Assembly: GCA_900316855.1 (NCBI GenBank)
Contig: ONEK01000002.1
Location: 45,788 to 109,787 of the forward strand
DNA from: an uncultured Lachnospiraceae bacterium
Lineage (GTDB): Bacteria; Bacillota; Clostridia; Lachnospirales; Lachnospiraceae
Reading direction: 5' to 3'
DNA: 64,000 nucleotides
The translations under genes and the position numbers were made by a program. The notes beneath the pieces were generated by a model. It was not told the DNA's origin and ran no database searches. It was given only the letters and a program-made list of their open reading frames with translations. Shown here one piece after another: positions 3,358-63,717 of this stretch (positions are counted from its first letter, which is position 1; each line of letters opens with the position of its first letter).

Positions 3358-4551
3358 ATGGGACAGAGAATGAAAAAGGTCATTGCTCTGCTGACAGCCG
3401 GTGTAATGTCGGTTGGAATGCTGGCAGGCTGCGGATCTTCCGCACCCGCATCCAGTGACAGCGCAGCAACCACAGCAGCTTCCGAAGCAGGTTCCGCTGC
3501 GGCACCCGGCGACATCACGATCGGTGTTTCCATCTGGAGTTCCACGGATGTACTGGGATCCCAGTGCAAGAAGATCGTTGACAAGGCGGCCAATGCCCTT
3601 GGCGTCAAGACGACATGGGTTGACCAGGGACACGTTTCCGAGCAGGTTACTGCTTCTGTTGAGCAGCTCTGCGCAGCTGGCGTGCAGGGTATCATCATCT
3701 GCAACTCCGCAGATTCCGAGATGACATCTGCAATTCAGACCTGCGATGCCAATAAGGTTTATCTTGCACAGTTCTTCCGTATCATTTCCAAGGAAAACAG
3801 CCCCGAGGTTTATCAGGCTGCCTGTGATTCCCAGTACTATGTAGGCGCTGTTCACGAGGATGAGGTTACGAACGGCTACACGCTTGTAAATCTCCTGCTC
3901 GATCACGGCGACAGGAACATCGGCCTTGAAGCATGGACGGTCGGCGATGCTACATTCCAGCTCAGATGGCAGGGCTATCAGCAGGCCATCGAGGAGTGGA
4001 ACAAGGCTAACCCGAGTGATCAGGCCACGCTTTCCGAGCCGGTTTACGCCAACACTTCCTCCGAGGAAGGTGCGGCAGCAGCAATGTCGCTTTACAACTC
4101 CATCCCCGGAATGGATGCCCTGATTGTTGCAGGCGGCGGCGGAGATCCGCTGGTTGGCTCCATCGGTGCTTTCGCAAATGCCGGACTCACCGGTAAGATC
4201 GATGTTGTTTCGACTGACTTCCTGGATGACCTGGCAGATCAGTTAAAGAGCGGCGGCATGTTCGCTGAGTCCGGCGGACATTTCTGCGATCCTCTGTTTG
4301 CATTCCTGATGGTTTACAACGCTGTCCAGGGCAAATATGTCAAGGATGCAGGTACGTTCGGATTTGAGATCATGTTCCCTTACCTGTATGTATCCTCTCC
4401 GGATGACTACGCTAATTACGAGAAGTATTTCGTAGATGCGGATCCCTACACGGACGAGGAGATCGTCGAGATGGCCGGCTACAGCTTCGATGATCTGAAC
4501 AAGGCTGCTACGAGCCTGTCCATCGACGATGTAATTTCCCGCCACAGCTGA
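3358..4551 (+). CDS. Sugar ABC transporter substrate-binding lipoprotein (CUT2, periplasmic binding protein type 1)
   Basis: Lipobox LAG-C, Ala/Ser linker, type-1 fold motifs (ITIGVSIW, GVQGIIIC); first gene of an ABC operon. Confidence 0.88.
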   Translation: MGQRMKKVIALLTAGVMSVGMLAGCGSSAPASSDSAATTAASEAGSAAAPGDITIGVSIWSSTDVLGSQCKKIVDKAANALGVKTTWVDQGHVSEQVTASVEQLCAAGVQGIIICNSADSEMTSAIQTCDANKVYLAQFFRIISKENSPEVYQAACDSQYYVGAVHEDEVTNGYTLVNLLLDHGDRNIGLEAWTVGDATFQLRWQGYQQAIEEWNKANPSDQATLSEPVYANTSSEEGAAAAMSLYNSIPGMDALIVAGGGGDPLVGSIGAFANAGLTGKIDVVSTDFLDDLADQLKSGGMFAESGGHFCDPLFAFLMVYNAVQGKYVKDAGTFGFEIMFPYLYVSSPDDYANYEKYFVDADPYTDEEIVEMAGYSFDDLNKAATSLSIDDVISRHS

Positions 4552-22293: not shown

Positions 22294-23682
22294 TCAGTAT
22301 TCCTGTTCCAGATAATCTTTCAGCTTCTTAGCACGGGAAGGGTGACGGAGCTTGCGCAGCGCCTTGGCTTCAATCTGCCGGATGCGCTCTCTTGTCACAC
22401 CGAAATCCCTTCCGACCTCTTCCAGGGTGCGCGGACGGCCGTCTGACAGACCGAAGCGGAGTGTCAGCACGTCACGTTCCCTTTCGGTGAGCGACATCAT
22501 CGCTTCGCGCAGCTGATCCCTGAGGCCGGAAAATGTTGCGGCATCCGCAGGGCCGACGGAAGTGGTATCGCTGATAAAATCTCCCAGCTCGCTGTCCTCT
22601 TCATCCCCGATTTTGGAATCCAGGGAAGCGGGAGTGGCAGCGACCTGCTGAATCTCCGTAACCTTATCTTCGGTGATTCCCATGCGTTCCGCAATTTCTG
22701 CCGTCGTAGGCTCCCTTCCGAGTTCCGTCGTGAGATTGCGTGTAATTTTAATGAATTTATTGATCGTCTCCACCATGTGCACGGGAATACGGATGGTTCG
22801 CGCCTGATCCGCGATGGCACGGGTGATAGCCTGCCGGATCCACCACGTTGCGTAGGTGGAGAATTTGAATCCCTTGCGGAAATCAAATTTATCAACGGCC
22901 TTCATGAGGCCCAGATTCCCCTCCTGGATCAGATCGAGGAAACTCATGCCTCGACCGACATATTTCTTCGCGATGGAAACAACAAGGCGCAGGTTGGATT
23001 CGGAGAGGGTGTTCTTGGCATCCCTGCCGTCTGCGGCAAGCTCCTCGAGCTCATCGGCGCTTTTTCCGATGAAAACCTCTTCCTTTTCTTCCCTGTATTC
23101 CGACAGCTCCAGGTCTTCCAGCGAATGAACCAGTGCTTCCTCCGTTACAGGCAGAATATTCTCTGCCAGCAGATTCTCGGCAATCTGACCGTTTTCAATC
23201 CGTGTTGCGAGGCGGATTTCTTCGTCGGCATTGAGCAGTCCGATCCTTCCGATCTCCCTAAGATACATGCGGATGGAATCCTCGGTGCCCGCATATTCCG
23301 TACCATCCTGGCTGCTCTCGTTTTTCTCGCCGGCTTCAATCTCCCTCAGTTCATCACTGGGAGCATCCTCGTCCTCTTCGGATGAGTCATCCTCCTCATA
23401 GACGGAAACCGCGTCTGAGTCATCCTCATTGTCCATGTCGAGGATATCGATCCCCTTACCTTCGAGATAGGAGGATGCCTGGTCGCTCTGCTCGTCGCTC
23501 AGCTCAAATGAAGCCAGTGCTTCATTCAGCTCCTGGCGGGAAAGCGTTCCGTGGTTTTTGCGTCCACGCTCCGCAAGCCCTTCCAGGACCCGGAGGAACT
23601 CCTCACTTCCGGGAGTGCTCCCTGCAGCTGCGGCTGCAGCCTCGGTATTCTGTTTCTTGGTGGGATTTTTTTTCTTAGCCAT
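22294..23682 (-). CDS. rpoD: RNA polymerase sigma-70 factor, RpoD/SigA-type
   Basis: Region 1.2 [11 protein letters not shown], 2.1-2.4 [12 protein letters not shown]...[10 protein letters not shown]...[20 protein letters not shown], 4.2 [27 protein letters not shown]. Confidence 0.95.
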
Positions 23683-23745
23683 GTATTACCTTATTTGCCC
23701 TTCATGCAGGATGAATCAACAATGAAGACCTGCGTCAAATTCAAC

Positions 23746-23754
23746 ATTCTAACA
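23746..23754 (-). promoter_or_regulatory. Extended -10 promoter element for rpoD
   Basis: TGT-TAGAAT on the minus strand about 65 nt upstream of the start; weak -35. Confidence 0.4.
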
Positions 23755-23832
23755 CGATTTTCCGAAATAGGAACACCGGAGCAAAAATAAATTTTCTCCG
23801 GGATTCATTCCGCGGCAGGCAGGATTACAGGC

Positions 23833-24168
23833 TCAGCGTTCGAATCTGAAATAAACCAGAATCGCTTCGTTATCCCGATGCACCCAGACGGCGGTATCCT
23901 CTCCGTCCTCTCCCGTGAGCGGCGCGATTGCATATCTGCCATACTCGTGTCCCTTTGAGGACGCCTTTCCATAGGAAGCGGCATCCCCGAAATCTTCGTT
24001 CTGGAAATGAATGACGGCATCAATGACATGCTGGATATCCTCTTCCCCAAGAAACAGTTCACGTATTCCGCGGGAGAGGTAAACCGGTTCCCCGTTTACA
24101 TTCCCGTAAAGGGCAGTTCCGTAGCCTTTCTTCAGTACAATGGATTTCAGCTCGTTAAGTTCTTTCAT
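23833..24168 (-). CDS. Hypothetical protein, possibly a distant relative of small plasmid/ICE-associated 'DWGD' proteins
   Basis: RBS GGAGG; normal composition; HFQNEDFGD and VWVHRDNEAILVYF motifs. Confidence 0.75.
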   Translation of the reverse strand: MKELNELKSIVLKKGYGTALYGNVNGEPVYLSRGIRELFLGEEDIQHVIDAVIHFQNEDFGDAASYGKASSKGHEYGRYAIAPLTGEDGEDTAVWVHRDNEAILVYFRFER

Positions 24169-24322
24169 GGAAACCTCCCTGACCGGAAACAGTCCGGTCC
24201 TTCAACCCCAGTATAGACCAAAATGGACCGGAAATACCTGCCGGTCCGGGCAAAGCAGGGACGATACGAATCCCGATGCATGTTTATCACGTCTAAGCCA
24301 GACGGGGATCAGAGCACCCGGA

Positions 24323-24862
24323 TTATACAAAAAGGAGTAAGCCGCATGCCACGCCGGCAAGATACCCGGCCGCCACATCCGAAGGATAATGGATTCCGCC
24401 AAGAACCCGGACCAGCGCAGAGCATGCTGACAGGGTGAGGAGCAGAGCCCCTGCCCGGAAATCAAGAAGGAGAGCCGCCATGGAGATGATCACCGAACTG
24501 AACACATGGCGGCTTGGCATGGAGCAGCCGCTCCTGTCGCGGACAAGGAGCGGGCGGATTCCGGCACCGCCGGGCAGCGGATCGTAAGGGCGTGGGCGGT
24601 TTATCCTCCTGCGGATAAAAGAGAGCAGGACAAAAGATCCTGCGGGAATCAGCAGAATCTTCAGAAGGACAGCATCCCGAAAGGGATCACCGCCCGACTG
24701 CAGAACGGAATGCAGCCGCAGGATCAGAAGGAGAGGATATGCCGCGTACATGATCCCGGTCAGCAGCAGATTGAAAACTTTCAGCAGTATAACAGGACCG
24801 CTTCCCCTGCGAAGCGGTCCTGACAGTTTCTGATAAAATTGAGCGTACTTTTCGGTACTCAT
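24323..24862 (-). CDS. PAP2-family membrane phosphatase
   Basis: RRINRPRP, SMPSRH, RVLGGIHYPSDV (three PAP2 motifs); TM helices. Confidence 0.9.
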   Translation of the reverse strand: MSTEKYAQFYQKLSGPLRRGSGPVILLKVFNLLLTGIMYAAYPLLLILRLHSVLQSGGDPFRDAVLLKILLIPAGSFVLLSFIRRRINRPRPYDPLPGGAGIRPLLVRDRSGCSMPSRHVFSSVIISMAALLLDFRAGALLLTLSACSALVRVLGGIHYPSDVAAGYLAGVACGLLLFV

Positions 24863-45259: not shown

Positions 45260-46363
45260 ATGGCAAGTCTTTCTCTGGAGCATGTTTATAAAAAGTATCC
45301 GAACGGATTTGAAGCAGTAAAGGATTTCAATCTGGATATTGCAGATAAGGAATTCATCATTTTCGTAGGACCTTCCGGATGCGGAAAATCTACCACACTT
45401 CGTATGATCGCCGGACTTGAGGATATCAGCCAGGGTACCCTGAAGATCGATGGCAAGGTCATGAACGATGTAGAGCCCAAGGACCGTGATATCGCGATGG
45501 TATTCCAGAACTACGCTCTGTATCCTCATATGACTGTATATGACAACATGGCATTCGGCCTGAAGCTTCGTAAGGTTCCGAAGGATGAAATCGACAAGAT
45601 GGTTCGCAATGCAGCCAAGATCCTGGATCTGACACAGCTTCTGGACCGCAAGCCGAAGGCTCTCTCCGGCGGACAGAGACAGCGTGTTGCCATGGGCCGT
45701 GCAATTGTACGTAACCCCAAGGTCTTCCTCATGGATGAGCCCCTGTCCAACCTGGATGCAAAGCTCCGTGTACAGATGAGATCAGAGATTGCCAAGCTGC
45801 ATCAGAGACTTGGCACCACGATCATCTATGTAACACATGACCAGACGGAGGCTATGACACTCGGTACGAGAATCGTAGTCATGAAGGATGGTGTCATCCA
45901 GCAGGTCGACACTCCCCAGCATCTGTATGATGATCCCTGCAACCTCTTCGTAGCAGGCTTCATGGGTTCTCCGCAGATGAACTTCATCGACGCGGTTGTA
46001 AAGGTAACCGGAGACCAGGTTGCCCTTCAGGTTGCCGGTGAGGACATTGTTCTGCCTGCTTCCAAGGCTGCAGCTGTAAAGCCCTACGATGGCAAGACCG
46101 TTGTCATGGGTATCCGCCCCGAAAATCTTTCCGATCACGAGGATGATCTGAAGGCAGCCAAGGCTACGCTTACATCCAAGGTAAATGTTCGTGAGCTCCT
46201 CGGTGCCGAGGTCTTCCTGTATTTCGATATTGCCGATACGCCTATGATTGCCCGCGTAGATCCCAGAACCTCTGCGCAGGTTGGCGATCAGGTCAAGTTC
46301 GCGGTAGATGTTGAGAAGATCCACGTCTTCGACAAGGAGACCGAGAAGGTCATCACCAACTGA
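45260..46363 (+). CDS. msmK: Shared CUT1 sugar ABC ATPase (MsmK/MalK/UgpC-type)
   Basis: GPSGCGKST, VFQNYALYPHM, LSGGQRQRVAMGR, MDEPLSNLD, YVTHDQ; no cognate permease adjacent. Confidence 0.93.
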   Translation: MASLSLEHVYKKYPNGFEAVKDFNLDIADKEFIIFVGPSGCGKSTTLRMIAGLEDISQGTLKIDGKVMNDVEPKDRDIAMVFQNYALYPHMTVYDNMAFGLKLRKVPKDEIDKMVRNAAKILDLTQLLDRKPKALSGGQRQRVAMGRAIVRNPKVFLMDEPLSNLDAKLRVQMRSEIAKLHQRLGTTIIYVTHDQTEAMTLGTRIVVMKDGVIQQVDTPQHLYDDPCNLFVAGFMGSPQMNFIDAVVKVTGDQVALQVAGEDIVLPASKAAAVKPYDGKTVVMGIRPENLSDHEDDLKAAKATLTSKVNVRELLGAEVFLYFDIADTPMIARVDPRTSAQVGDQVKFAVDVEKIHVFDKETEKVITN

Positions 46364-49446: not shown

Positions 49447-49582
49447 CAGTTATTCAAATCCTCGACGCTCCGGTTTTCCTTTTACGGAAAGGAACGAATG
49501 CCGTTCGCGGCGGGATTCCTGCACAGTATAGCGAAGGGAGGAACGGGATGCAACACCTCTCTGCGCGGGTTTGGAGGCAGTC

Positions 49583-50020
49583 ATGAAAATTTCAACCAAA
49601 GGTCGTTACGCGCTGCGCCTGATGCTGGATCTGGCACTGCATGATACCGGGGAGTTCATTTCCCTCAAAGATATTTCCCAAAGACAGGGAATTACTGTAA
49701 AATATCTGGAGCAGATTGTGACCGTTCTGTCCAAGGCCGGCTTTGTCCGTTCCCAGCGCGGCAACAACGGGGGTTATCGTCTTTCGCGTACGCCGGACCA
49801 GTACACAACGGGGGATATTCTGCGCGTGATGGAGGGCTCCCTGCAGCCGATCGCGTGCCTGGATGACGACGTCAATGTCTGCCCCATGAGCGGACAGTGC
49901 ACGGTTCTGCCATTCTGGAAGAATCTTTCGAAGGTAATCAATGATTACGTGGATTCCGTAACGCTGCAGGACCTCAAGGATCAGGCGCTTCAGATGTCTG
50001 CAAATGACTTCGTGATATAG
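49583..50020 (+). CDS. Rrf2-family regulator (IscR/CymR-like)
   Basis: MKISTKGRYALR, ISQRQGITVKYLEQI, SQRGNNGGY, three Cys (C92, C99, C105). Confidence 0.92.
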   Translation: MKISTKGRYALRLMLDLALHDTGEFISLKDISQRQGITVKYLEQIVTVLSKAGFVRSQRGNNGGYRLSRTPDQYTTGDILRVMEGSLQPIACLDDDVNVCPMSGQCTVLPFWKNLSKVINDYVDSVTLQDLKDQALQMSANDFVI

Positions 50021-50031
50021 AAAGGATCAAT

Positions 50032-50784
50032 ATGTCAACATTATTAGAGGTACAGAATCTCTCGGCTGCCATTGAGGAAGGTGAGCTGCTGCATCATATC
50101 AGCCTGAAGATCAATCCCGGGGAAACGCATGTCCTGATGGGTCCGAATGGTGCCGGAAAGTCCACGTTTGGTTATACGCTGATGGGCAGCCCGAATTATA
50201 AGGTCACAGGAGGAAGAATTCTGTTCGAGGGAGAGGATATCACCCATCTGCCTGCGGACCGGCGGGCATCCAGGGGAATGTTTCTGTCCTTCCAGAATCC
50301 GCTGGAGGTACCGGGACTTTCACTGGAGGAATTCCTGCGCAATGCCATCCGTCAGCAGACCGGAAAGCCGTTGAAAATTTTCCAGTTCAAGAAGCAGCTT
50401 GAGTCCACTATGCAGCTGCTGCAGATGGACGAGTCCTATGCGGATCGTGATCTGAATGTCGGCTTTTCCGGAGGTGAGAAGAAGAAGGCGGAAATCCTGC
50501 AGCTTCTGATGCTGAATCCGAAGCTGGCCATTCTCGATGAAACAGACTCCGGACTTGATGTCGATGCGGTCCGGACAGTATCCCGGGGCGTGGAGGAATA
50601 CCAGAAACAGCGAAACGGCGCTCTCCTTGTCATCACGCACTCCACACGGATTCTCGAGTCCCTGAAGGTGGATTATACGCATATCCTCGTAAAGGGCAGG
50701 CTGATCGTCACCGGCGGGCCGGAACTGGTGGAAGAGATCAACGAGCATGGATTTGAAAAATACATCGAAGCCGGGCAGCAGTAA
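50032..50784 (+). CDS. sufC: Fe-S cluster assembly ATPase SufC
   Basis: GPNGAGKST, FLSFQNP, GFSGGEKKK, ILDETDSGLD, ITH. Confidence 0.96.
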   Translation: MSTLLEVQNLSAAIEEGELLHHISLKINPGETHVLMGPNGAGKSTFGYTLMGSPNYKVTGGRILFEGEDITHLPADRRASRGMFLSFQNPLEVPGLSLEEFLRNAIRQQTGKPLKIFQFKKQLESTMQLLQMDESYADRDLNVGFSGGEKKKAEILQLLMLNPKLAILDETDSGLDVDAVRTVSRGVEEYQKQRNGALLVITHSTRILESLKVDYTHILVKGRLIVTGGPELVEEINEHGFEKYIEAGQQ

Positions 50785-50813
50785 ATTCTGCCGCGGATGT
50801 AAAAGAGGTTATT

Positions 50814-52214
50814 ATGGCAAAACAGAAAATACAGGATGTCGACAGAAGCCTGTATGATTTCAGGGACGATGAATCCCGGGGCTTTTACCGGATGGAGGAG
50901 GGCCTGACGGAGGAAATCGTCCTGCAGATTTCCAGGGAGAAGAAGGATCCGGACTGGATGCGGGATTTCCGTCTGAAGTGCCTGGATCTGTATAACCGCA
51001 TGGAGGTCCCTGACTGGGGGCCTTCTATTGACGGTCTTGATATGGACCGCATCACGAATTACGTCCGGTCACGTTCCGAAATGAAGGGCGACTGGAACGA
51101 AGTCCCGGATGAGATCAAGAATACCTTTGAGAAGCTGGGCATTCCGCAGGCGGAGAGGGAATCCCTCGCGGGCGTGGGGGCCCAGTATGATTCCGAGCTG
51201 GTCTATCACAATCTTCAGAAGGAGGTGGCGGACCAGGGCGTTATCTACATCGGGTTTGAGGAAGCGGTCACAGGCAGATATTCCGATATGGTGAAGGAAT
51301 ATTTCATGAAGCTTGTTCCTCCGACCGATCATAAATTTGCTGCGCTGCACGGTGCGGTCTGGAGCGGAGGCTCCTTTGTCTATGTCCCGAAGGGAGTACA
51401 TGTGGCAATTCCGCTTCAGTCCTATTTTCGTCTGAATGCCCGCGGCGCAGGCCAGTTTGAGCACACACTGATTATTGTGGACGAAGGCGCGGATGTACAT
51501 TTTATCGAGGGCTGCTCTGCACCCAAATACAATGTCGCGAATCTGCATGCCGGCTGTGTTGAGCTGTATGTGAAGAGAAATGCCCGACTCCGCTATTCCA
51601 CGATCGAGAACTGGTCCAAAAACATGTACAACCTCAACACCAAGCGCGCCCTGGTGGAAGAAGGCGGTACCATGGAATGGGTTTCCGGAAGCTTCGGCTC
51701 CCATGTGTCTTACCTGTACCCTACAACCATTCTGAAGGGCGATCATTCCCACTGCGAATTTACGGGAATTACGTTTGCGGGGAAAGGACAGAACCTGGAC
51801 ACCGGCGCCAAGATGATTCATATCGGCAGGGACACCTCTTCCTATATCAATACGAAGAGTATCAGCAAGGATGGAGGCATTTCCACGTACCGTTCCAGTG
51901 TGGAAATCCGTTCTACCGCCAGGCGCGCAAAGGCGTCGGTCGACTGTGCTTCGCTCATGCTGGATGACATTTCCCGATCGGACACCATTCCCGCCATGGA
52001 TGTGAGGACACCGGATGCGGATGTCGGACATGAAGCGAAGATCGGACGCATATCCGATGAAGCTGTCTTCTATCTGATGAGCCGGGGTATCACGGAGGCG
52101 GATGCACGTGCGATGATCGTTTCCGGGTTTGCGGATCCGGTTTCCAAGGAACTGCCTCTGGAATATGCCGCCGAGATGAATAACCTCATCAAACTGGAAA
52201 TGGAGGGAATGTGA
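50814..52214 (+). CDS. sufB: Fe-S cluster assembly protein SufB
   Basis: AQYDSE, AVWSGGSF, GQFEHTLI, EGCSAP, HEAKIG, FYLMSRG. Confidence 0.96.
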   Translation: MAKQKIQDVDRSLYDFRDDESRGFYRMEEGLTEEIVLQISREKKDPDWMRDFRLKCLDLYNRMEVPDWGPSIDGLDMDRITNYVRSRSEMKGDWNEVPDEIKNTFEKLGIPQAERESLAGVGAQYDSELVYHNLQKEVADQGVIYIGFEEAVTGRYSDMVKEYFMKLVPPTDHKFAALHGAVWSGGSFVYVPKGVHVAIPLQSYFRLNARGAGQFEHTLIIVDEGADVHFIEGCSAPKYNVANLHAGCVELYVKRNARLRYSTIENWSKNMYNLNTKRALVEEGGTMEWVSGSFGSHVSYLYPTTILKGDHSHCEFTGITFAGKGQNLDTGAKMIHIGRDTSSYINTKSISKDGGISTYRSSVEIRSTARRAKASVDCASLMLDDISRSDTIPAMDVRTPDADVGHEAKIGRISDEAVFYLMSRGITEADARAMIVSGFADPVSKELPLEYAAEMNNLIKLEMEGM

Positions 52215-53356
52215 TGGGTGCAATGAAAATCGGTCAGATTCCTTCCCTGACGTGGAACAAACTGGATATTAATTTTGCTTCCGTGGACAATCCGGAGAAG
52301 ATCAACACGCAGATGGAAACCCGGATCGAATCCCTTCCGGAGGGTGTGACTTTTCAAAACCTATCGGTGGGCGAAGCAGACCGCTGGATCCAGGAGCATG
52401 CGCCTGCACAGCCGGCAGAGAATGTGATTGCCGGCAAGCGCCCCATTTATCATCCGCAGAAGTTTGCAACCGGCCTCGGTGCGGAATTCGAGGATTACCT
52501 CAAGCTCGCAAAGGGCGGCACCACATTGATCGAGACCGCGGAAAATGTTAAGACAGATGCGCCGGTTACGATTGATTTCGACTACCAGTCGGGAAACCGT
52601 GTATTTACACGGCAGATCATTCATGTATCCCGTAACAGCTCGCTGACTCTGATTCTGGTTTTCCGCTCCGCGAAAGATGCGGCAGGCATGGCGGGAATTC
52701 AGACCAGGGTGGTGCTGGACGAGGGAGCGGATCTTGCGCTTGCGGGAGTGCAGCTTCTGGGAAATGGCTTTGTACATTATGATGATCTCGGCGCGGCGCT
52801 GAAGGCAGATGCCGGAATGAAGCTCATTCAGCTGGAGCTGGGTGCGGGGAAAACGTATACGGGAGTTCACGGCGAGCTGTCGGGGGACCGGTCCGTCTGG
52901 GACAGCAGGACCGGCTATCTGGGGCAGGATGCACAGGTCGTTGATCTGTCAGCGAACCTGGTACAGCGCGGCCGCAAAACCCGCTGTGAGATGAAGTTTA
53001 ACGGTGTGCTCGACGGCGCTGCCACAAAGAGGCTTTCCGATACCATCGACTTCCGCAGGGGTTCGAGGGGCTCCTATGGACATGAATCCGAGGACGTGCT
53101 TCTTCTCGGGGACGATGCGGTCAATAAGTCTCTTCCGGTTATTCTGTGTGAGGAAGAGGATATGGAGGGATCTCACGGGGCATCCATCGGCAGACTTGAT
53201 GATGATATGCTGTTTTATATGGCGTCCCGCGGAATCGATGAGAAACAGGCGCAGCAGATCATGGTACGTGCAAGACTGTCCGCTGTTGCGAAGGATCTTC
53301 CGGATGAAAATCTGAAAAATGAAATTCATGATTTTATCGAGGAGGCTTTCAGGTAA
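52214..53356 (+). CDS. sufD: Fe-S cluster assembly protein SufD
   Basis: SufBD beta-helix; SLPVILCEEEDMEGSHGASIG, FYMASRG; lies between sufB and sufS. Confidence 0.9.
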   Translation: MGAMKIGQIPSLTWNKLDINFASVDNPEKINTQMETRIESLPEGVTFQNLSVGEADRWIQEHAPAQPAENVIAGKRPIYHPQKFATGLGAEFEDYLKLAKGGTTLIETAENVKTDAPVTIDFDYQSGNRVFTRQIIHVSRNSSLTLILVFRSAKDAAGMAGIQTRVVLDEGADLALAGVQLLGNGFVHYDDLGAALKADAGMKLIQLELGAGKTYTGVHGELSGDRSVWDSRTGYLGQDAQVVDLSANLVQRGRKTRCEMKFNGVLDGAATKRLSDTIDFRRGSRGSYGHESEDVLLLGDDAVNKSLPVILCEEEDMEGSHGASIGRLDDDMLFYMASRGIDEKQAQQIMVRARLSAVAKDLPDENLKNEIHDFIEEAFR

Positions 53357-54594
53357 TGACGAACGAATTTCGTAAGGACTTCCCGATATTTTCCGGAGAC
53401 GGGAATCGGGTAATCTACTTTGATAATGCAGCCACAACACAGCGCCCGCGCCAGGTGATGGAGGCCATGCGTGATTTCAATGACACCTGTAATGCCAATC
53501 CGCTTCGCGGGCTGTACGGATGGTCCATACAGGCAACCGATGCATATGAGCAGGCGAGACATAAGGCAGCACAGCTGGTTCATGCGGGCTCCGACAGCGA
53601 GATTATTTTCACCAGGAACACGACAGAGTCCCTGAATCTTGCCGCGTACAGCTATGGGCTGACGCATGTGAAGGAGGGCGATGAAATCGTCCTGTCGGTC
53701 ACGGAGCATCATTCCAATATTCTGCCATGGCAGATGGTGGCGAAACAGACCGGCGCAAAGCTGGTTTACCTGGAGCCGCAGCCGGACGGAACTCTGACAG
53801 AGGAGGAGATCCGCTCGAAGATCACGGATCGTGCCGCTATCGTCACGATCGGCCATGTATCAAATGTACTTGGTACGACAAATCCCGTGAAAAGGATTGC
53901 GGAAACCGCGCATGCACACGGCGCAGTCTGCATTGTGGACGGTGCCCAGTCAACCCCTCATATTCCGGTAAATGTGCAGGAGATCGGATGCGATTTCTTC
54001 GCTTTTTCAGGACATAAATTGTGCGGGCCGATGGGTATCGGTGTCCTGTATGGACGCGCAGAGCTGCTGGACGCGATGCCTCCGTTCCTGACCGGCGGAG
54101 AGATGATCGAATATGTCGACAGGGACAGCGCTACCTATGCGGAGGTGCCGGCCAAATTCGAGGCCGGGACCGTGAACGCCATGGGGGCAGTCGGACTGGG
54201 GGCCGCTATCGACTATATTAATCAGGTAGGCTTTGAGCGGATTGTCGGGCATGAGAAACAACTTACATCCCGCCTGCTGTCGGGTCTGGAGCGCATTCCG
54301 GAGGTGACGGTATACGGATCGAAGGACCCCGCAGACCACTGCGGCATCGTATCCTTCAATGTGAAGGACTGCCACCCGCATGATGTGGCCTCAGTCCTGG
54401 ATACTGAGAAGATCTGCATCCGTGCAGGACACCACTGTGCGCAGCCGTTGATGGACTACCTGATGCAGAAGTGTGATATGCCCATTCGCGCGACCTGCCG
54501 TGCAAGCCTCTATTTTTATAACACGGAAGAGGAAGTGGACAGGTTTGTGGAAGCTGTTTCCCACGTGAGGGAATGGCTGGGTTATAATAAGTAA
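53356..54594 (+). CDS. sufS: Cysteine desulfurase SufS
   Basis: YFDNAATTQ, EHHSN, DGAQS, FSGHK (PLP Lys), RAGHHCAQP. Confidence 0.96.
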   Translation: MTNEFRKDFPIFSGDGNRVIYFDNAATTQRPRQVMEAMRDFNDTCNANPLRGLYGWSIQATDAYEQARHKAAQLVHAGSDSEIIFTRNTTESLNLAAYSYGLTHVKEGDEIVLSVTEHHSNILPWQMVAKQTGAKLVYLEPQPDGTLTEEEIRSKITDRAAIVTIGHVSNVLGTTNPVKRIAETAHAHGAVCIVDGAQSTPHIPVNVQEIGCDFFAFSGHKLCGPMGIGVLYGRAELLDAMPPFLTGGEMIEYVDRDSATYAEVPAKFEAGTVNAMGAVGLGAAIDYINQVGFERIVGHEKQLTSRLLSGLERIPEVTVYGSKDPADHCGIVSFNVKDCHPHDVASVLDTEKICIRAGHHCAQPLMDYLMQKCDMPIRATCRASLYFYNTEEEVDRFVEAVSHVREWLGYNK

Positions 54595-54608
54595 AGCTTT
54601 GTGAATGG

Positions 54609-54645
54609 ACTCCCCGCCAGGTGCCATAGCAGGCGGGGAGTTTCT
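54609..54645 (+). terminator. Stem-loop between sufS and sufU
   Basis: ACTCCCCGCC / GGCGGGGAGT 10-bp stem, short U-tract. Confidence 0.5.
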
Positions 54646-54689
54646 GTGCCTGCGGGCACCATTCCGGATCTTGTTTTCAGGAGGCTCAG

Positions 54690-55190
54690 ATGGATATCAA
54701 ATCGTTGTATCGCGAAATCGTGAATGAACATAACCTGCATCCTTCCCACAAGAAGGATCTGCAGAACCCCACCATGGTCCTCAGAGGAATCAATCCCAGC
54801 TGCGGCGACGACATCAGCCTGCAGCTGGTGATGAAGGACGGGGTGATTGAGGACGCGGCCTTCAATGGCTCCGGCTGCGCCGTATCCCAGGCATCCGCGG
54901 ACATGATGTGTGATCTGTGCATCGGCAGAAAGGCATCCGAGGCGGAACATCTTTCCGAACTGTTCATGCGGATGATCCGGCAGAATGATCTTACACAGCA
55001 GGAAAAGGAAGAGCTGGACGAGGCGGCTTCCCTCGAGGATGTAGCCCATATGCCGGCCCGTGTCAAGTGCGCAACACTCGGCTGGCGCACCATGAAGCAG
55101 ATCATTGACGACCTTAACAGGAACGGGCTGCCGGACGGAACAGCTGCTGCTTCCGGAGCCGATGCCTGCGGGGCGTGTCAGGTGAAGTGA
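54690..55190 (+). CDS. sufU: SufU/NifU-type scaffold or sulfurtransferase
   Basis: GINPSCGD, GCAVSQASA, RVKCATLGW. Confidence 0.93.
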   Translation: MDIKSLYREIVNEHNLHPSHKKDLQNPTMVLRGINPSCGDDISLQLVMKDGVIEDAAFNGSGCAVSQASADMMCDLCIGRKASEAEHLSELFMRMIRQNDLTQQEKEELDEAASLEDVAHMPARVKCATLGWRTMKQIIDDLNRNGLPDGTAAASGADACGACQVK

Positions 55191-55194
55191 ACCT

Positions 55195-55785
55195 ATGGCA
55201 GACAGCAACGCGACGAAAAATGCCCTTGCGGCATCCATGAAGAAGCTGATGATCCGGAGGCCGTTTGAGAAGATCAGTGTCTCCGATATCTGCAATGACT
55301 GCGGTATCAACCGCAAGAGCTTCTATTATCATTTCCGGGACAAGTATGACCTTGTGAACTGGATCTTCTATACGGGCTTTGTCGGGGAAGTGGATCTTTT
55401 TTCCTATAAGACAGGCTGGGATCTGGTCGAGGATATCTGCACTTATTTTTACAGGGAAAAGGAATTCTACCGGGCAGCGCTTCGGATCGAGGGGCAGAAT
55501 TCCTTCAGGGATTATCTTATTGAGGTGGCAACGCCGGTTGTGGAATTTTTCCTGAAGGATGTGATTCCGGAGAATGAAAGCGACTCGGTGTTTGCAACCT
55601 TTATCACAGACGGGTTTCTGACCGCTCTGATCCGCTGGCTGTCCGGAGGGTATCATCAGGAGATGGATGCCTCACAGTTTGTCGCTAAAATGAAGCAGAT
55701 CATCGTGACACTGGGTGACAACCTGCATCAGGAGGCATGGCGGAACACACAGAGTGAGAAGAGACGTCCGGAGGGATCAATTTGA
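55195..55785 (+). CDS. TetR-family regulator (DhaS-like, TetR_C_8 type)
   Basis: PFEKISVSDICNDCGINRKSFYYHFRDKYDLVNWIF. Confidence 0.92.
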   Translation: MADSNATKNALAASMKKLMIRRPFEKISVSDICNDCGINRKSFYYHFRDKYDLVNWIFYTGFVGEVDLFSYKTGWDLVEDICTYFYREKEFYRAALRIEGQNSFRDYLIEVATPVVEFFLKDVIPENESDSVFATFITDGFLTALIRWLSGGYHQEMDASQFVAKMKQIIVTLGDNLHQEAWRNTQSEKRRPEGSI

Positions 55786-56807
55786 ATACATATCTGATGA
55801 AAAAGGCCATGATCGAGACTGCGGTCACACGGGGAATCCATGAGATGGAGGAGGATCCCGAGCGGTCTGTGCGCAGGCTGATTGATCTGGGAAGGCAGTT
55901 CTCCAAGAACCGCTTTCAGGACCAGATTTTCTCTGTCATGCAGAAGAGCCTCACCAATGAGAACAGTGCATATTACGACATGGTCCATAACCTGATGAAG
56001 AATTCAGACCATGCGGCGATGAAGGAGTTTGGCGTCAATTTCGGATATATGGGCTGGACGTATGGAGCCGCACGGATCCGTGAAACCGAGAAGAAGGAGG
56101 GCGTCTGCATCCCCTGGTGCATCATGCTGCGCTATGACCCTGCGGGGAGGAACGGATATTCCATGGAACAGCTGGCTCATTTATTTGAACAGGGTCAGGA
56201 CCTGGGAATTTATGTCTATTTCATTCGTGAACGGGGAACAGGGGACTCCTATGAACTGCTGGAGCTGCTGGAACGCTACAAGGACTGCGCCTTTGTCTGG
56301 GTCAAGGAAGACGGACGTCTTACAGCGGCGCAGATTCAGGTGCTTCGGGCGTGCCGCAACACCCTTGTAATGCTGCCGGCAGACACGGAGAATACGGAAC
56401 CGCTGCTGACGGCGGCGCTCCTGAGGGAGCAGAAAATCCTGTTTGCGATGTATGCGTCCTATGATCTCGATCCGGATGAGGAAAGACGGCGTAAAATCGT
56501 GGAAAATGTGCTGACCTCGGAGTCATCGCTGTTCTTCCTGGTTGCACAGGATGGGGCGAAGGCCAATCTGCGGCAGCTTGCTTATGATTCGAGGCTCCGG
56601 CAGAATTATCCGTTTGTGGAAGTGGACTATTACGGGGATGCAGAGGCTATCGGCAAAATTGTGGCGGAGCATCAGAGCCTCCTCGAAATTGACAGTGACG
56701 GAACGATTCTTCGTCCTGCGTGCGGTGGTACGGGATTTGATTTCGGAATACCCCTGATGGAGGAACTCCGGAACATAATGCCGGCATGGAAGGCTGCAGG
56801 CAGGTAA
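55782..56807 (+). CDS. Degenerate radical-SAM/SPASM homologue lacking the CxxxCxxC motif
   Basis: TTG start overlapping the TetR stop (TTGA); co-linear resemblance, from recall, to clostridial radical SAM proteins (DPE..., IPW.I.., QG.DLG.Y.Y, DCAF). Confidence 0.65.
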   Translation: MNTYLMKKAMIETAVTRGIHEMEEDPERSVRRLIDLGRQFSKNRFQDQIFSVMQKSLTNENSAYYDMVHNLMKNSDHAAMKEFGVNFGYMGWTYGAARIRETEKKEGVCIPWCIMLRYDPAGRNGYSMEQLAHLFEQGQDLGIYVYFIRERGTGDSYELLELLERYKDCAFVWVKEDGRLTAAQIQVLRACRNTLVMLPADTENTEPLLTAALLREQKILFAMYASYDLDPDEERRRKIVENVLTSESSLFFLVAQDGAKANLRQLAYDSRLRQNYPFVEVDYYGDAEAIGKIVAEHQSLLEIDSDGTILRPACGGTGFDFGIPLMEELRNIMPAWKAAGR

Positions 56808-56846
56808 CAGAATCAGCAGGGGCATCAGCCCGCAGGAGGTGGAAAT

Positions 56847-58493
56847 ATGCTCATGGATGGGAAGATCGCAGCAGGCAGGGACAATCAGGGAAACCCGGTC
56901 GTACTGCTTCCGCAGATGGCTAACCGGCATGGACTGATCGCAGGTGCGACGGGAACCGGAAAGACGGTCACCCTGAAGGTGCTCGCGGAATCCTTCAGCG
57001 ACCTCGGTGTACCGGTTTTTGTTTCAGATGTGAAGGGGGACCTCGCGGGGCTTGCGTGCCCCGGTGCAGACACGGCGGACCTGCGGGAGCGCGTGCATAG
57101 GTTCGGCCTGCAGGAACCCGGGTTTACCCTGCGCGGATATCCCGTGACTTTCTGGGACCTGTATGGTGAAAACGGGATCCCTCTGCGCACGACAATATCC
57201 GAGATGGGACCTCTCCTGCTTGCCAGGATTCTGGGCCTGAATGACCTGCAGTCTGATCTTCTGTCCATCGCATTCCGCATTGCGGATGAACAGCAGCTTC
57301 TGCTCGTAGATACGAAGGATCTGAAGGCTCTCCTGAATTATATTGATGAACACAGGAAGGATTTCCAGGAGGAGTACGGGAGAATTTCCTCTGCCTCTCT
57401 TGCAGTTATTGTCCGCGCTGTGGTAGCCCTGGAAGGGGAGGGAGCGGATCAGTTCTTCGGGGAAACGGCCCTGAATATCAACGACTGGTTTACCACAGCA
57501 AGGGACGGCCGGGGGATGATTCATATCCTGGATGCGCAGTCTCTTGTAAATAACGGAAAGCTGTATTCCACTTTCCTGCTCTGGTTTCTGTCGGAACTGT
57601 TTGAGACACTTCCGGAGGTCGGCGATCCGGACCGGCCGAGAATGGTTTTTTTCTTTGATGAGGCGCACCTTTTGTTCCGGGATGCCTCCAGAGCATTGCT
57701 TGAAAAGATCGAACAGGTTGTGAAGCTCATCCGGTCCAAAGGTGTCGGAATCTGGTTCTGTACGCAGAATCCTTCCGATATCCCAGGAGGAGTGCTGGCG
57801 CAGCTTGGCAACAAGGTGGAACATGCGCTTCATGCCTATACACCGTCTGAACAGAAGGCAATTAAGGCGGCGGCGGATTCGTTCCGTCCAAATCCGGAAT
57901 TTGACACGGCAGAGGCTCTGCAGGCGCTGGGTGTCGGTGAGGCCATTATATCCTTCCTGGATGAGAAAGGTGTGCCTGATGCGGCGAGGAAGGTCTGCAT
58001 TTATCCGCCGGAGAGCAGGATGGGGGCAGTCAGCAGCGAAGAGAGGGCCGGTCTGATCTCAGGCAGCGCGTTGTCTGCCAAGTACTCTGTCAGCATCGAT
58101 CCGGATTCAGCCTATGAATTCCTGAAACGCAAGGTATCAGAGGAGGCAGCCCTGCAGCAGCAGGAACTGGAGCGGCAGCAGGCGGCTGTCCAGCAGCAGA
58201 AGGAAGATAAGGAGCGCGAGAAGGAAGCCCGCAGAGAAGAGGCGGCAAGGCAGAAGCAGGAAGAAAAGGAGAGGCTTGCCCGGGAAAAGGAAGAAAAGAA
58301 GAAAGCGGATTCCCAGAAAAAGGCAGTGCAGAAAGCCGCAAAATCCGTCGGAAACAGCGTTGCGGGAACCGTAGGCAGAGAGGTCGGCAAATCCGTGGGT
58401 GGTTCCCTGCTTGGCAAGTTCGGAAGAACGCTGGGCGGCAATGTCGGTGCCAGCCTTGGAAGAGGACTCATGTCCACCCTGTTTCACCGGTAA
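56847..58493 (+). CDS. DUF853/YjgR HerA-FtsK-like ATPase
   Basis: NRHGLIAGATGTGKT (Walker A), FFFDEAHLLF (Walker B), RSKGVG..F.TQNP.D. Confidence 0.92.
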   Translation: MLMDGKIAAGRDNQGNPVVLLPQMANRHGLIAGATGTGKTVTLKVLAESFSDLGVPVFVSDVKGDLAGLACPGADTADLRERVHRFGLQEPGFTLRGYPVTFWDLYGENGIPLRTTISEMGPLLLARILGLNDLQSDLLSIAFRIADEQQLLLVDTKDLKALLNYIDEHRKDFQEEYGRISSASLAVIVRAVVALEGEGADQFFGETALNINDWFTTARDGRGMIHILDAQSLVNNGKLYSTFLLWFLSELFETLPEVGDPDRPRMVFFFDEAHLLFRDASRALLEKIEQVVKLIRSKGVGIWFCTQNPSDIPGGVLAQLGNKVEHALHAYTPSEQKAIKAAADSFRPNPEFDTAEALQALGVGEAIISFLDEKGVPDAARKVCIYPPESRMGAVSSEERAGLISGSALSAKYSVSIDPDSAYEFLKRKVSEEAALQQQELERQQAAVQQQKEDKEREKEARREEAARQKQEEKERLAREKEEKKKADSQKKAVQKAAKSVGNSVAGTVGREVGKSVGGSLLGKFGRTLGGNVGASLGRGLMSTLFHR

Positions 58494-60455: not shown

Positions 60456-60561
60456 CTAATTTGAATTATTATCGGGGATCGTGTGCGCCCGCAGATATGA
60501 ATTACGGAAAATCCGCATCGGCGGCATTTTTGATGCTTTCCGTCATAAGAGGAATCGGGAG

Positions 60562-63500
60562 TTGGACAAGTACGAGTATAAGATCAGTCTCAATGAAATC
60601 AATCGTCTGATTTCTGAGCATCGTTTTCAGGAAGCTGCTCAGATTGCTGACACAATTGACTGGAACAGGGTTAAAACAGTCACGACTTTATGCAAAATCA
60701 GTGACGTTTATAAGGCCAACCGGGAATTTACCAAGAGCCGGAAGGTTCTGCTTCTCGCACTTAAGCGCAGCCCCGGCACTCCGGAAATCATCTATAACCT
60801 GTGTGAGCTCACTATTTACCTGTACGGGCAGAACGGAATGCAGAGTGATCTGGCTTCCGCCCTTCAGCTGCTGCAGGAATATCAGGCAGCAAGGCCCGGG
60901 GATCCCAGAAGGCTCATACTTCAATATAAGATGTACAAGGTTTCTCCCGTGTCGGATGAGGAGAAAATATCTATACTTGAACAATTAAAGAAGGAACAGC
61001 ATTCCGCCCGCTGGGGCTATGAACTGGCTGTCCTGTATCAGAAAGCAGGTGAGGACGGGAAAGCCAGGGAGGAATGCCGCAGTATCACATCCTCGTTTCA
61101 GGGAAAGTATGCGGATCGTGCGGCTGATTTGTATGCCGAACTTCTGAAGAAGGACGAAGTTCCGCTGAAGGATCCGGAGACAGAAGGGGAAGAGGAAGCT
61201 GCTGCGCCCCAGGAAACGGAAGCCGGGAAAACGGAACCGGATACGGTGGAATTGCCGGAGGAGAAAACGGTGCCGGCTTCCCGGGAAGAAACCGGCAGGG
61301 AGCCCGCCGGACATTCCGGAGAGGACCAGGCTGCCAAAGAGGCCGCAGCCCGGATTGAACGGGAGCTGACGAAAGAGGAAGGCGAGGAAGACGGCAGTAC
61401 GGAGAATCATCCCATGACGGTGGGAGAAGCCATGGAAGCCGCCGCCCGCAGGGACGCGGAGAGTGAAACGCACAGGGAAGGGGAAGACGCATCCGGCTAT
61501 GAAGCGAATGTAGCTGCTGGTATGGAGGATCTCTTTACCGCGGAGGAAGAACACCCGAAAGCCGCGCTTTCCGAAGAGACACCCTCTCCGGAAGCGGATG
61601 AAGCAACCGGCCAGATGTCCATCAATCAGGTGATGGATGAGTGGGAGCGGATCCGCAGGGGGATCCGTACGGCCAATGACGAGAAGCGTGCCCAGCGGAT
61701 CATGGAAGACACAGGAGCCCTGCTTCACGATTTCGACGTCACTGCACAGCACGGCCTGCTGGAAGATATCGAAAAAGGTACAGAGAGGCACAGGAGAAGA
61801 GTCCGTTCCGGTTACCGGGAGGACCTGCCGGATGGACGGCCTGCCCGGAGAAGCCCCTCCGACGCACAGCCGCGCTACCATGATTCATACTATACACAGT
61901 CTGACAGAGGTCTCGATCCGGAGGATCACTCTGATCAGGGTGAGGCATATGACCCGGAAGAGAGAACCTATCCGGAGCAGGATTCCTACCCGGAGGAAGG
62001 AGTGTATCAGGATTCCTATCCGGAGGAGGGAACGGATCCGCAGGGGTCTGATTATCCGGCTGAGGCAGCGGGCAGTGAAGGCAGGTATGATTCGCCGGAC
62101 ACTGACCGGCAGGTATCCCATGAGACCCTGTGGTCCGAGACAGCTGCGGTGGATCTGCCTTCGGTGGAAGATATTTCTTCCGGGGAAGCTATTGCTGCAG
62201 GGCAGGTTTCCGCAGAAGCTCCTGCAGAGGAGGCCGTCACGGATTATGGGGCAGGGACTGCGCCCGAGCCGGAACCTGCGGCAGCGGATACGGATGCAGA
62301 TGTTGTGCGCACGGAAGACCCTTCTGCTGAAAAGGAGCAGGAGACAGAGGAAGAGACTGCTGTCAATGTAGATGTCCGCTATCAGCCTTCCGGGCAGAAG
62401 ACAGAAGATCCGATGGAAACCATTGCCACCCGCAAGTGGAACCCGGACGAAATCCGGAAAGCTCTGGAGGAGCAGGAAGCCCGCGCAAGGTCAGAAGCAC
62501 TTGCCGAGGTGCGTGGAACTGACCGGCAGCAGGAAAAATCCGGCAAGGAGCAGTCCGGAAAACCGGACCTGATCGCGGAGGAAGAATCCGCTGCTCCGGT
62601 TCCTGTGGAAGAGGGGACACCCGCCGGGGAAGCATCTGAGGGGGAAGAAGGACCTGCTGAGGAGATTCCTGCAGCAGAAGAGTCATCTGCCGCAGAGGAA
62701 TCTGTGGAAGCGGAGGAACTGTCCGAATCCGGCAAGGAGACGGATACAGCTCCGGCAGCAGATGACAGGGAACCGGAAGAGGGCATCCCGGAACCGGAGG
62801 CAATACAGCAGTCAGATATAGCTGAGAACGGCACAGGGACAGACGGGCAGACAGCCCCGGCAGACGAGCCGGCTCCCGCTGCCGTGATCCGCACAGTACA
62901 CAGCAGCAAAGGTGTACCCTCCCGGCTTCCCGGGGATGCCGTCATCCGGACAGAAACCGGCAGGACCCTGACCCTGGAGGAAGCGCGGCTGTTCGGCCCG
63001 ATCCTTCGCGTGGAGCAGAACCATCGCCAGATTCTTGCCGCCCTGGATCAGATTTCTCTTGCGTCTTATACAGGGAACCTGATCATCTGCGGCGGCGAAG
63101 CTACTGCGCTGAAAACCGCACAGGGCATACTGGAGATTACCCGCAAGAGTGACTCCAACTTTACCGGCAGGATTGTGAAGGCTACCGGCTCTGCGCTTAA
63201 CCGGCTCAGCACGGACAAGTTCGCGAAAACCATCGAAAAAATCGAAAACGGCGCCCTGATTGTAAGCCGCGCCGCAGAAATGGACGAAGAGACTGTGACA
63301 AACCTTCATCGCCAGCTTGAGGGCAGGGAGCATGGGCTCATTGTCATCCTCATGGACGTGAAAAAGATGCTGGCGCCGTTCCTGAAACGGTTTCAGGACA
63401 AGCTGGGCAGCTTTACCGCAAGGATCGAAATCCATCCGCTCAACGACAGGGCGCTGGTATCCTACGGAAAGGATTACGCAAAGAGCCAGGACTATTCACT

Positions 63501-63717
63501 GGATGAATTTGCCGAAATGGCCCTGCATTCGCGGATTTCGTCCATGCAGACTTCCAAGCATCATGTGACTCTGAAGGAAGTTCGGGATATCGTGGATGAG
63601 GCGATCAGTTATGCTTCCAGGAAAAATCTTGCAGCATTGTTCGCAATCCTTTCGAGAAAAAGATATGATGCGGATGACCGCATCATCATCCGGGAGAAGG
63701 ATTTCACGCACTATTGA
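60562..63717 (+). CDS. Large hypothetical protein: TPR-like N-terminus, long acidic disordered linker, degenerate AAA+ (SpoVK/CbbX-like) C-terminus
   Basis: TTG start (DKYEYK) downstream of the promoter; helical-repeat N-terminus; Glu/Pro/Ala-rich centre; GNLIICGGEATALKTA in the Walker A position. Confidence 0.75.
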   Translation: MDKYEYKISLNEINRLISEHRFQEAAQIADTIDWNRVKTVTTLCKISDVYKANREFTKSRKVLLLALKRSPGTPEIIYNLCELTIYLYGQNGMQSDLASALQLLQEYQAARPGDPRRLILQYKMYKVSPVSDEEKISILEQLKKEQHSARWGYELAVLYQKAGEDGKAREECRSITSSFQGKYADRAADLYAELLKKDEVPLKDPETEGEEEAAAPQETEAGKTEPDTVELPEEKTVPASREETGREPAGHSGEDQAAKEAAARIERELTKEEGEEDGSTENHPMTVGEAMEAAARRDAESETHREGEDASGYEANVAAGMEDLFTAEEEHPKAALSEETPSPEADEATGQMSINQVMDEWERIRRGIRTANDEKRAQRIMEDTGALLHDFDVTAQHGLLEDIEKGTERHRRRVRSGYREDLPDGRPARRSPSDAQPRYHDSYYTQSDRGLDPEDHSDQGEAYDPEERTYPEQDSYPEEGVYQDSYPEEGTDPQGSDYPAEAAGSEGRYDSPDTDRQVSHETLWSETAAVDLPSVEDISSGEAIAAGQVSAEAPAEEAVTDYGAGTAPEPEPAAADTDADVVRTEDPSAEKEQETEEETAVNVDVRYQPSGQKTEDPMETIATRKWNPDEIRKALEEQEARARSEALAEVRGTDRQQEKSGKEQSGKPDLIAEEESAAPVPVEEGTPAGEASEGEEGPAEEIPAAEESSAAEESVEAEELSESGKETDTAPAADDREPEEGIPEPEAIQQSDIAENGTGTDGQTAPADEPAPAAVIRTVHSSKGVPSRLPGDAVIRTETGRTLTLEEARLFGPILRVEQNHRQILAALDQISLASYTGNLIICGGEATALKTAQGILEITRKSDSNFTGRIVKATGSALNRLSTDKFAKTIEKIENGALIVSRAAEMDEETVTNLHRQLEGREHGLIVILMDVKKMLAPFLKRFQDKLGSFTARIEIHPLNDRALVSYGKDYAKSQDYSLDEFAEMALHSRISSMQTSKHHVTLKEVRDIVDEAISYASRKNLAALFAILSRKRYDADDRIIIREKDFTHY

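Follow-up and report, generated by a model that had tools for sequence, protein, structure and literature searches.

The 64,000-nucleotide stretch of DNA analysed here (hereafter the window; positions 45,788 to 109,787 of contig ONEK01000002.1, from the uncultured Lachnospiraceae bacterium assembly GCA_900316855.1) encodes, directly behind a TetR-family regulator gene, a 341-amino-acid protein that is a non-catalytic paralogue of the approximately 450-470-amino-acid clostridial radical S-adenosylmethionine (SAM)/SPASM enzymes, and which we refer to as pseudo-rSAM. The protein retains the helical N-terminal domain of its parent enzymes and the scaffold of their barrel, its gene is functional, and together with one DhaS-like TetR_C_8 orthogroup it makes up an obligate two-gene module. 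We propose, with a probability of about 0.4, that this module works in the manner of DhaQ/DhaS, with an inactive enzyme paralogue acting alongside a TetR regulator to control the genes of the parent enzyme.

Searches of Pfam and NCBIfam with pseudo-rSAM gave no family match, the two NCBIfam matches obtained at E <= 1 being chance ones, and a profile search of PDB sequences returned nothing significant. Its ancestry is visible at another locus (L001), where a 31%-identical relative adjoins a 450-amino-acid enzyme carrying both Radical_SAM and SPASM domains. Pseudo-rSAM matches this enzyme by BLASTP with an E-value of 7e-19 over residues 6-309, and the profile of its family matches it by hhalign at 99.5% (E = 1e-22; residues 5-332 against 4-371). 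A first-pass annotation of the window had claimed such an end-to-end alignment with radical SAM/SPASM proteins of about 450 residues, quoting motif pairs from that family; the alignment was recovered, and the true counterparts (VPWAILM, QGKELGIHMYI, HQDCQF, IDFQND and HINAKG) proved to be near those quoted. In both the BLASTP and the hhalign alignments, a 16-residue gap coincides with the CNLHCIGC cluster loop of the enzyme. The clean deletion of this loop with the reading frame left intact, also part of the first-pass annotation, is likewise seen in a joint alignment of the two families.

An AlphaFold2 model of pseudo-rSAM, for which 26 family members served as input, was obtained with high confidence (predicted local distance difference test score of 90, predicted template-modelling score of 0.90). 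It consists of five N-terminal helices (residues 3-24, 26-40, 45-57, 63-74 and 77-106, as assigned by DSSP) followed by strands that alternate with helices over residues 113 to 294. The top PDB matches found with Foldseek were SuiB, SkfB, biotin synthase (BioB), TigE, PqqE and EpeE. The model, Foldseek and hhalign thus agree on the partial (beta/alpha)6 TIM barrel of radical SAM enzymes and on homology to them, with the Pfam hidden Markov model remaining silent. An earlier proposal that the protein is a non-catalytic TIM barrel is borne out by this radical-SAM-like fold, which both hhalign and Foldseek link to the radical SAM superfamily, together with the disappearance of the catalytic motifs.

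That disappearance is complete. In the joint alignment, which comprises 63 pseudo-rSAM family members and 23 intact enzymes, every invariant motif of the intact enzymes is deleted or substituted in the pseudo-rSAM members, namely the three cluster cysteines, TGGEP, TNxTL, SxEG, NDxxRRGxG, MPVG and the SPASM cysteines. The three invariant cysteines of the active enzymes face gaps or non-cysteine columns, and TGGEP, which is invariant in all 23 intact paralogues, aligns with variable residues (RERG-TG). The first-pass annotation had reported neither CxxxCxxC nor GGEP nor SPASM cysteines in the 341-residue protein, which is correct, and CxxxCxxC is also lacking from all 220 relatives inspected (0/220). 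Neither the cluster motif nor the SAM-binding motif of the radical SAM domain (PF04055) is present in pseudo-rSAM, and there is no SPASM/Twitch domain (PF13186), as the protein stops near residue 371 of the 450 in the parent; approximately 110 C-terminal residues, corresponding to SPASM, are missing, and the C-terminal cysteines of the parent have no counterpart. Because the [4Fe-4S] loop, the SAM motifs, several active-site loops and the SPASM domain have all been lost, pseudo-rSAM is incapable of radical chemistry. What remains conserved falls into two groups. The barrel positions P111, W112, G142, F171, N193, Y227, R271, D286 and G307 are conserved in both the short and the intact families, and the positions conserved only in the pseudo-rSAM family (P26, R28, R31, Y64, Y65, G84 and Y89) sit in the N-terminal helical domain. 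Such family-specific conservation in the N-terminal domain, and not in the former active site, would fit a role in binding rather than a new catalytic activity.

The family is large and under selection. Clustering yields 73 groups at 90% identity, and at 50% identity and E <= 1e-3 there are 827 representatives, 220 of them reaching E <= 1e-30; the median length of the 220 members that were fetched is 342 residues, the longest has 402, and database names for family members read 'hypothetical protein' throughout. Ratios of nonsynonymous to synonymous substitution rates (dN/dS) for pairs of pseudo-rSAM orthologues lie between 0.011 and 0.092, at dS values of 0.12-0.70, as compared to 0.02-0.05 for sufS and 0.06-0.10 for tatD at the same loci. 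Sequence evolution is nonetheless more rapid in pseudo-rSAM than in the neighbouring proteins, its mean pairwise distance being 0.71 as against 0.40 (TetR) and 0.26-0.30 (SufU, SufS). A decaying radical SAM remnant or a mis-called open reading frame would account for the loss of the catalytic motifs and of the C-terminal domain, as well as for the lack of any Pfam or NCBIfam match. Such a relic would not be expected to persist as stop-free, full-length orthologues of about 340 residues in dozens of genomes and across the 827 representative clusters, to show dN/dS values of 0.01-0.09, or to yield a confident fold prediction, and real decay, as exemplified by a fragmented copy in genome G170, looks quite unlike the reading frame in the window. 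We therefore consider this explanation to be virtually without credibility. The first-pass annotation had named strain restriction and a dN/dS near 1 as the marks of simple decay, and the breadth of the family and its dN/dS values rule such decay out.

The TetR gene next to pseudo-rSAM encodes a protein with matches to Pfam TetR_N (5.9e-09; 36 bits against a cut-off of 24) and TetR_C_8 (8.6e-14; 51.9 bits against a cut-off of 26.1). It scores 118.2 bits (E = 3.9e-34) on TIGR02366, the NCBIfam model for DhaS, which is the named family it comes nearest to by score, without reaching the cut-off of 129, and by its sequence is a close relative of DhaS and not a DhaS equivalog. No dha kinase genes were found near it among the open reading frames of the window. 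To examine how far the two genes travel together, co-occurrence was scanned across 201 genus representatives. Pseudo-rSAM is present in 14 of these and has the TetR gene adjacent in 13, while TetR orthologues (E <= 1e-39) are found in all of these 13 and nowhere among the 187 genomes devoid of pseudo-rSAM. In one genus representative, G170 (locus L116; contig C31, about 23269-24699), fragments of pseudo-rSAM and TetR lie side by side and the TetR gene is broken over three frames, which suggests that both genes decayed jointly. At three suf-linked loci (L020, L021 and L024), the neighbouring TetR is far more divergent, its best match being to the TetR of L001 at 35-37% identity and not to that of the window at 62-72%, and pseudo-rSAM is still 61-63% identical; the regulator may have been replaced at these loci.

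Gene order was surveyed at 39 loci from species-representative genomes, mostly of rumen and gut Lachnospiraceae. The commonest order is KsgA< TatD< HerA< pseudo> TetR< SufU< SufS<, in which pseudo-rSAM usually lies on the strand opposite to all of its neighbours and is convergent with TetR, the 3' ends of the two genes often overlapping. The same-strand order TetR>pseudo> was found only in the window and at loci L016, L018 and L019, and a third order, TetR> <HerA pseudo>, at L007, L014 and L022. For the pseudo-rSAM/HerA segment, which is flanked by the suf-TetR block and by tatD-ksgA, relatives show three or more orientations, namely TetR> pseudo> HerA>, TetR> <HerA pseudo> and TetR> <pseudo HerA> (window 55195-58493 compared with L003, L007, L014, L016, L019 and L022), and local inversions have occurred here repeatedly. 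Since the same-strand order is rare among the 39 loci, the 4-nt overlap of the two genes in the window is a derived outcome of such inversions. In distant members of the family (26-39% identity), the convergent TetR is kept although suf genes are absent from the neighbourhood. Consequently, two elements of the first-pass annotation need qualification: the coupling of the protein to TetR stands as a conserved pairing, found in 13 of the 14 carrier genera, but the overlap and the same-strand order are specific to a lineage, most relatives being convergent; and the SUF neighbourhood, although present here, is clade synteny, as members of 27-35% identity keep TetR without suf. In several distant lineages (L001, L053, L057, G047, G029 and G176), pseudo-rSAM is paired divergently with an intact radical SAM/SPASM gene. 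At L005 and L053, which belong to unrelated lineages, the ribosomal protein genes rpsF-ssb-rpsR are neighbours of pseudo-rSAM or of its intact paralogue.

The intact parent enzymes form a very large family, with at least 8000 clusters at E <= 1e-40 in gut and rumen Clostridia, which carry only generic names such as 'radical SAM protein' or 'MoaA/NifB/PqqE/SkfB family' (PF04055 plus PF13186). Against NCBIfam, the intact enzyme gives weak matches (NirJ2, AhbD, MftC and others) that all lie far under their cut-offs, and against the PDB it matches SkfB alone (3.8e-09); no characterised close relative was found in NCBIfam, in the PDB or by a large homology search. The source genome of the window carries intact paralogues on two other contigs, C20 (76950-78287) and C21 (3720-5015), with no TetR gene beside either. 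Across the 201 genomes, an intact enzyme accompanies pseudo-rSAM in 10 of 14 carriers and is present in 47 of the 187 other genomes (odds ratio 7.4, p = 7e-4). At L001, a 51-residue, lysine- and glutamate-rich open reading frame (positions 4323-4478, - strand) shares 16 nt with the intact radical SAM/SPASM gene at the 3' end of the latter; it was considered as a precursor of a ribosomally synthesised and post-translationally modified peptide (RiPP), and this assignment is unsupported, the product having no cysteine and no family match.

A possible regulatory connection between the module and the parent enzymes comes from a 22-bp palindrome, GGACA-N12-TGTCC, that is common to the regions upstream of pseudo-rSAM genes. 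In the 300 bp upstream of 42 non-redundant pseudo-rSAM genes, it was found in perfect form in 7, with up to one mismatch in 12 and with up to two mismatches in 26, whereas random 300-bp windows from the same loci contained it in 0.3%, 2.3% and 16% of cases, respectively. It also precedes the TetR gene at L063 and L068. The source genome has no copy near the TetR/pseudo-rSAM pair; instead, one intact paralogue is preceded by a perfect copy (C21:3471-3492), some 160 bp ahead of its start, and the other by a copy with one mismatch (C20:76805-76826), at a distance of about 110 bp. This genome contains 13 perfect copies and 225 with up to one mismatch, of which 12 are plausibly non-coding, the two sites before the intact paralogues among them. 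A looser search with a variable spacer returned 107 matches as compared to about 40 expected in this genome of 56% guanine-plus-cytosine content, so that the fixed N12 spacing and the non-coding filter were needed. In module-bearing genomes, 6 of the 7 intact paralogues not linked to the module have the palindrome upstream (both in the source genome, both in G042, the single one in G003 and one of two in G113), versus none of 16 in genomes lacking the module. In three genomes (G000, G042 and G113) there is a palindrome before intact genes and none before the pseudo-rSAM gene, which argues that pseudo-rSAM is tied to TetR not merely as one of its targets. The first-pass annotation had offered pseudo-rSAM as a ligand sensor or anti-repressor for the TetR protein, or as a partner of an active radical SAM enzyme, and both proposals gain support from the palindrome common to the pair and to the genes of the intact paralogues.

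Apart from the two intact paralogues, no coherent regulon emerged from the non-coding palindrome sites of the source genome. Two near-identical 25-bp palindromes, GGACAAAAATAT(T/G)GAATAATTGTCC, lie 33 bp apart at C16:74199-74223 and C16:74232-74256 and have the half-sites of the N12 element with a spacer of 15 bp. A palindrome with one mismatch at C38:8595-8616 lies between divergent genes for a TetR-like protein (231 amino acids) and a transporter-like large membrane protein; this copy may be due to chance or may be a related operator of another TetR.

In the mechanism that we propose, TetR would bind the GGACA-N12-TGTCC palindrome at predicted operators upstream of pseudo-rSAM, sometimes of TetR itself, and of the intact parent-enzyme genes, with pseudo-rSAM as a protein partner that modulates TetR. 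Through its retained binding domain, pseudo-rSAM would sense the substrate of the enzyme or a related signal. In the source genome, the candidate operators would be those before the two intact paralogues, and the inversion that put pseudo-rSAM directly behind TetR, where the suf operon ends, would render the pair co-transcribed and translationally coupled. By analogy, pseudo-rSAM most plausibly acts with TetR as a protein ligand or sensor. The most specific form of this proposal, in which the radical-SAM-derived pseudoenzyme is the sensory subunit of TetR, its N-terminal domain binding the substrate or product of the parent and TetR sitting on operators before the enzyme genes, is put forward only tentatively.

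Several observations weigh against a DhaQ/DhaS-like module. The usual convergent arrangement of the two genes is not an operon, no fusion proteins were seen among family members (the longest having 402 residues), and a mirror-tree test of TetR against pseudo-rSAM gave no sign of co-evolution in excess of that due to phylogeny (partial r = 0.08). The palindrome is assigned to this TetR through co-occurrence, and in the suf-linked clade nearest to the window its right half-site is degenerate (GGACA-N12-TTGTTG, two mismatches). Furthermore, 4 of the 14 carrier genera (G074, G110, G037 and G111, whose genomes are 96-99% complete) have no intact paralogue, and the module therefore cannot exist solely to regulate that enzyme.

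Pseudo-rSAM might alternatively serve the intact enzyme directly, as a non-catalytic partner, decoy or chaperone that binds its substrate or the enzyme itself, with TetR being a conventional small-molecule regulator of both genes that makes no contact with it. The enrichment of the intact enzyme among carriers and the divergent pairing with an intact paralogue in distant lineages, where the palindrome often falls within the shared divergent promoter region, are what such a role would predict, and the substrate-side N-terminal domain and barrel residues N193, Y227, R271 and D286 are common to the active family. However, the linkage to TetR, with its exclusive co-occurrence, is far tighter than that to the enzyme, which is missing altogether from four carriers; in addition, three genomes have the candidate operator at the intact genes and not at pseudo-rSAM, and at the N-terminal-domain positions that are most conserved within the pseudo-rSAM family, the active enzymes carry other residues. 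We regard this explanation as unlikely, and as less so than one in which the barrel gained a new, SAM-free and non-radical function, the binding or conversion of a small molecule unrelated to the parent, under a merely local TetR. That second explanation would accommodate the strong purifying selection, the persistence of the family in genomes without the parent enzyme, the palindrome upstream of pseudo-rSAM in many genomes and Foldseek matches to generic TIM-barrel enzymes at E-values of about 1e-4. It is rendered improbable by the conservation pattern, as no residues conserved only in the pseudo-rSAM family cluster in the barrel, the conserved barrel residues being parental and seemingly structural, and the active-site loops were deleted and not remodelled; it also leaves unexplained why candidate operators precede intact paralogues only in module-bearing genomes. 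A DhaQ/DhaS-like pairing of pseudo-rSAM with TetR is the reading that we prefer.

The layout of the locus is given in the table below. The TTG start codon of pseudo-rSAM follows its Shine-Dalgarno sequence GGAGGG at a distance of 7 nt, and is considered correct because homologues that start with ATG have the same N-terminus, MNTYLMKK. The gene overlaps that of TetR by the four bases TTGA (55782-55785), an overlap that the first-pass annotation had reported correctly, as it had the positions of sufU before TetR and of a DUF853 (now HerA_C) ATPase gene after pseudo-rSAM on the same strand. The TetR gene starts 4 nt past the end of sufU, and the HerA_C gene begins 39 nt past the pseudo-rSAM reading frame. 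The Pfam domains SufBD, Aminotran_5, ABC_tran and Rrf2 were found at loci syntenic to the window. Neither promoter-like sites nor terminator-like sites on the + strand were found between sufU, TetR, pseudo-rSAM and HerA, and because no such site divides the genes, Rrf2-sufCBDSU-tetR-orf-herA looks like a single transcription unit. The HerA_C ATPase gene is probably not part of the TetR/pseudo-rSAM module, its orientation relative to pseudo-rSAM varying among loci; it is syntenic in many relatives and missing beside distant members. Farther downstream in the window (60481-63717, + strand) is an open reading frame for a product of 1078 amino acids, the middle part of which is an acidic, low-complexity tract of great length, rich in glutamate, alanine, proline and aspartate.

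Features of the TetR/pseudo-rSAM locus, in window coordinates
Feature	Position	Strand	Basis or remark
Rrf2 regulator, then sufC, sufB, sufD, sufS, sufU	49571..55190	+	Open reading frames; NifU_N in last gene
TetR-family regulator gene, 196 amino acids, DhaS-like subfamily	55195..55785	+	Pfam, NCBIfam
Shine-Dalgarno sequence GGAGGG of pseudo-rSAM, within 3' end of TetR gene	55769..55774	+	Sequence reading
Pseudo-rSAM gene (radical SAM paralogue without cluster or SPASM), 341 amino acids, TTG start	55782..56807	+	
N-terminal all-helical domain, residues 1-106	55782..56099	+	DSSP of model; common to active parent enzymes
Radical SAM beta/alpha barrel remnant, residues 107-341	56100..56807	+	Ends at hairpin preceding SPASM domain of parent
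Site of lost parent [4Fe-4S] loop (C-N-x-x-C-x-G-C-W-A-x-x-Y-G)	56139..56159	+	Alignment gap
HerA_C (formerly DUF853) P-loop ATPase gene	56847..58493	+	Pfam HerA_C, 5.1e-204

Radical SAM enzymes make up one of the largest enzyme superfamilies, yet their non-catalytic descendants are barely documented outside of a few curated annotation models, and pseudo-rSAM adds to them a well-populated family under selection. It is homologous to the clostridial radical SAM/SPASM enzymes from end to end, also in the helical N-terminal domain that is specific to their family, and has their barrel fold; it differs from them in lacking the cluster cysteines, GGEP, the other invariant motifs and SPASM. With the RiPP-type maturases of solved structure SuiB, SkfB and PqqE (Foldseek E-values of 2.5e-08 to 2.5e-04, template-modelling scores of 0.44-0.51 on the query), it has in common a layout in three parts, in which a barrel stands between an N-terminal recognition domain and a C-terminal extension; unlike them, it has no clusters and no SPASM, its identity to them is 11-15%, and its N-terminal domain is all-helical in the model, whereas the RiPP recognition element of SuiB is a winged helix. 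TIGR04347 ('pseudo-SAM/SPASM'), which is named among the weak matches of the intact paralogues, is a curated NCBIfam example of a radical SAM homologue that likewise has no canonical cluster motif; by its name it keeps SPASM, and pseudo-rSAM does not match it at E <= 1 (cut-off 525 bits). Nor does pseudo-rSAM match TIGR04150, the pseudo-rSAM of the GG-Bacteroidales system. To our knowledge, pairing with a TetR regulator has not been described for the proteins of either model, and searches of a paper library on radical SAM pseudoenzymes and a link to TetR found no relevant description. The family merits a model of its own, such that its members are neither left as 'hypothetical' nor mislabelled as active radical SAM enzymes.

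Protein partners of TetR-family regulators include GlnK for AmtR and FtsZ for SlmA, both of which have folds unrelated to that of pseudo-rSAM and are not enzyme paralogues. The closest parallel is found in Lactococcus lactis, where the TetR-family activator DhaS uses DhaQ, an inactive paralogue of DhaK, as its co-activator (PMC7590123, PMC4325133). As in that system, a regulator composed of TetR_N and TetR_C_8 (118 bits on TIGR02366) is encoded beside an inactive enzyme paralogue, and the candidate operator before the genes of the intact enzyme would extend the parallel. The two differ in that the partner here comes from a radical SAM/SPASM enzyme and not from a DhaK kinase subunit, that the regulator falls under the equivalog cut-off of 129, and that the two genes are usually convergent and form no operon. 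If the proposal holds, the DhaQ/DhaS principle, in which a dead enzyme paralogue becomes the protein ligand of a TetR, would be generalised to a different scaffold; a second TetR would then be known to have an enzyme paralogue as its co-regulator, the radical SAM scaffold would be seen in a regulatory role for the first time, and the module would provide a regulatory entry point to the function and substrate of the parent family.

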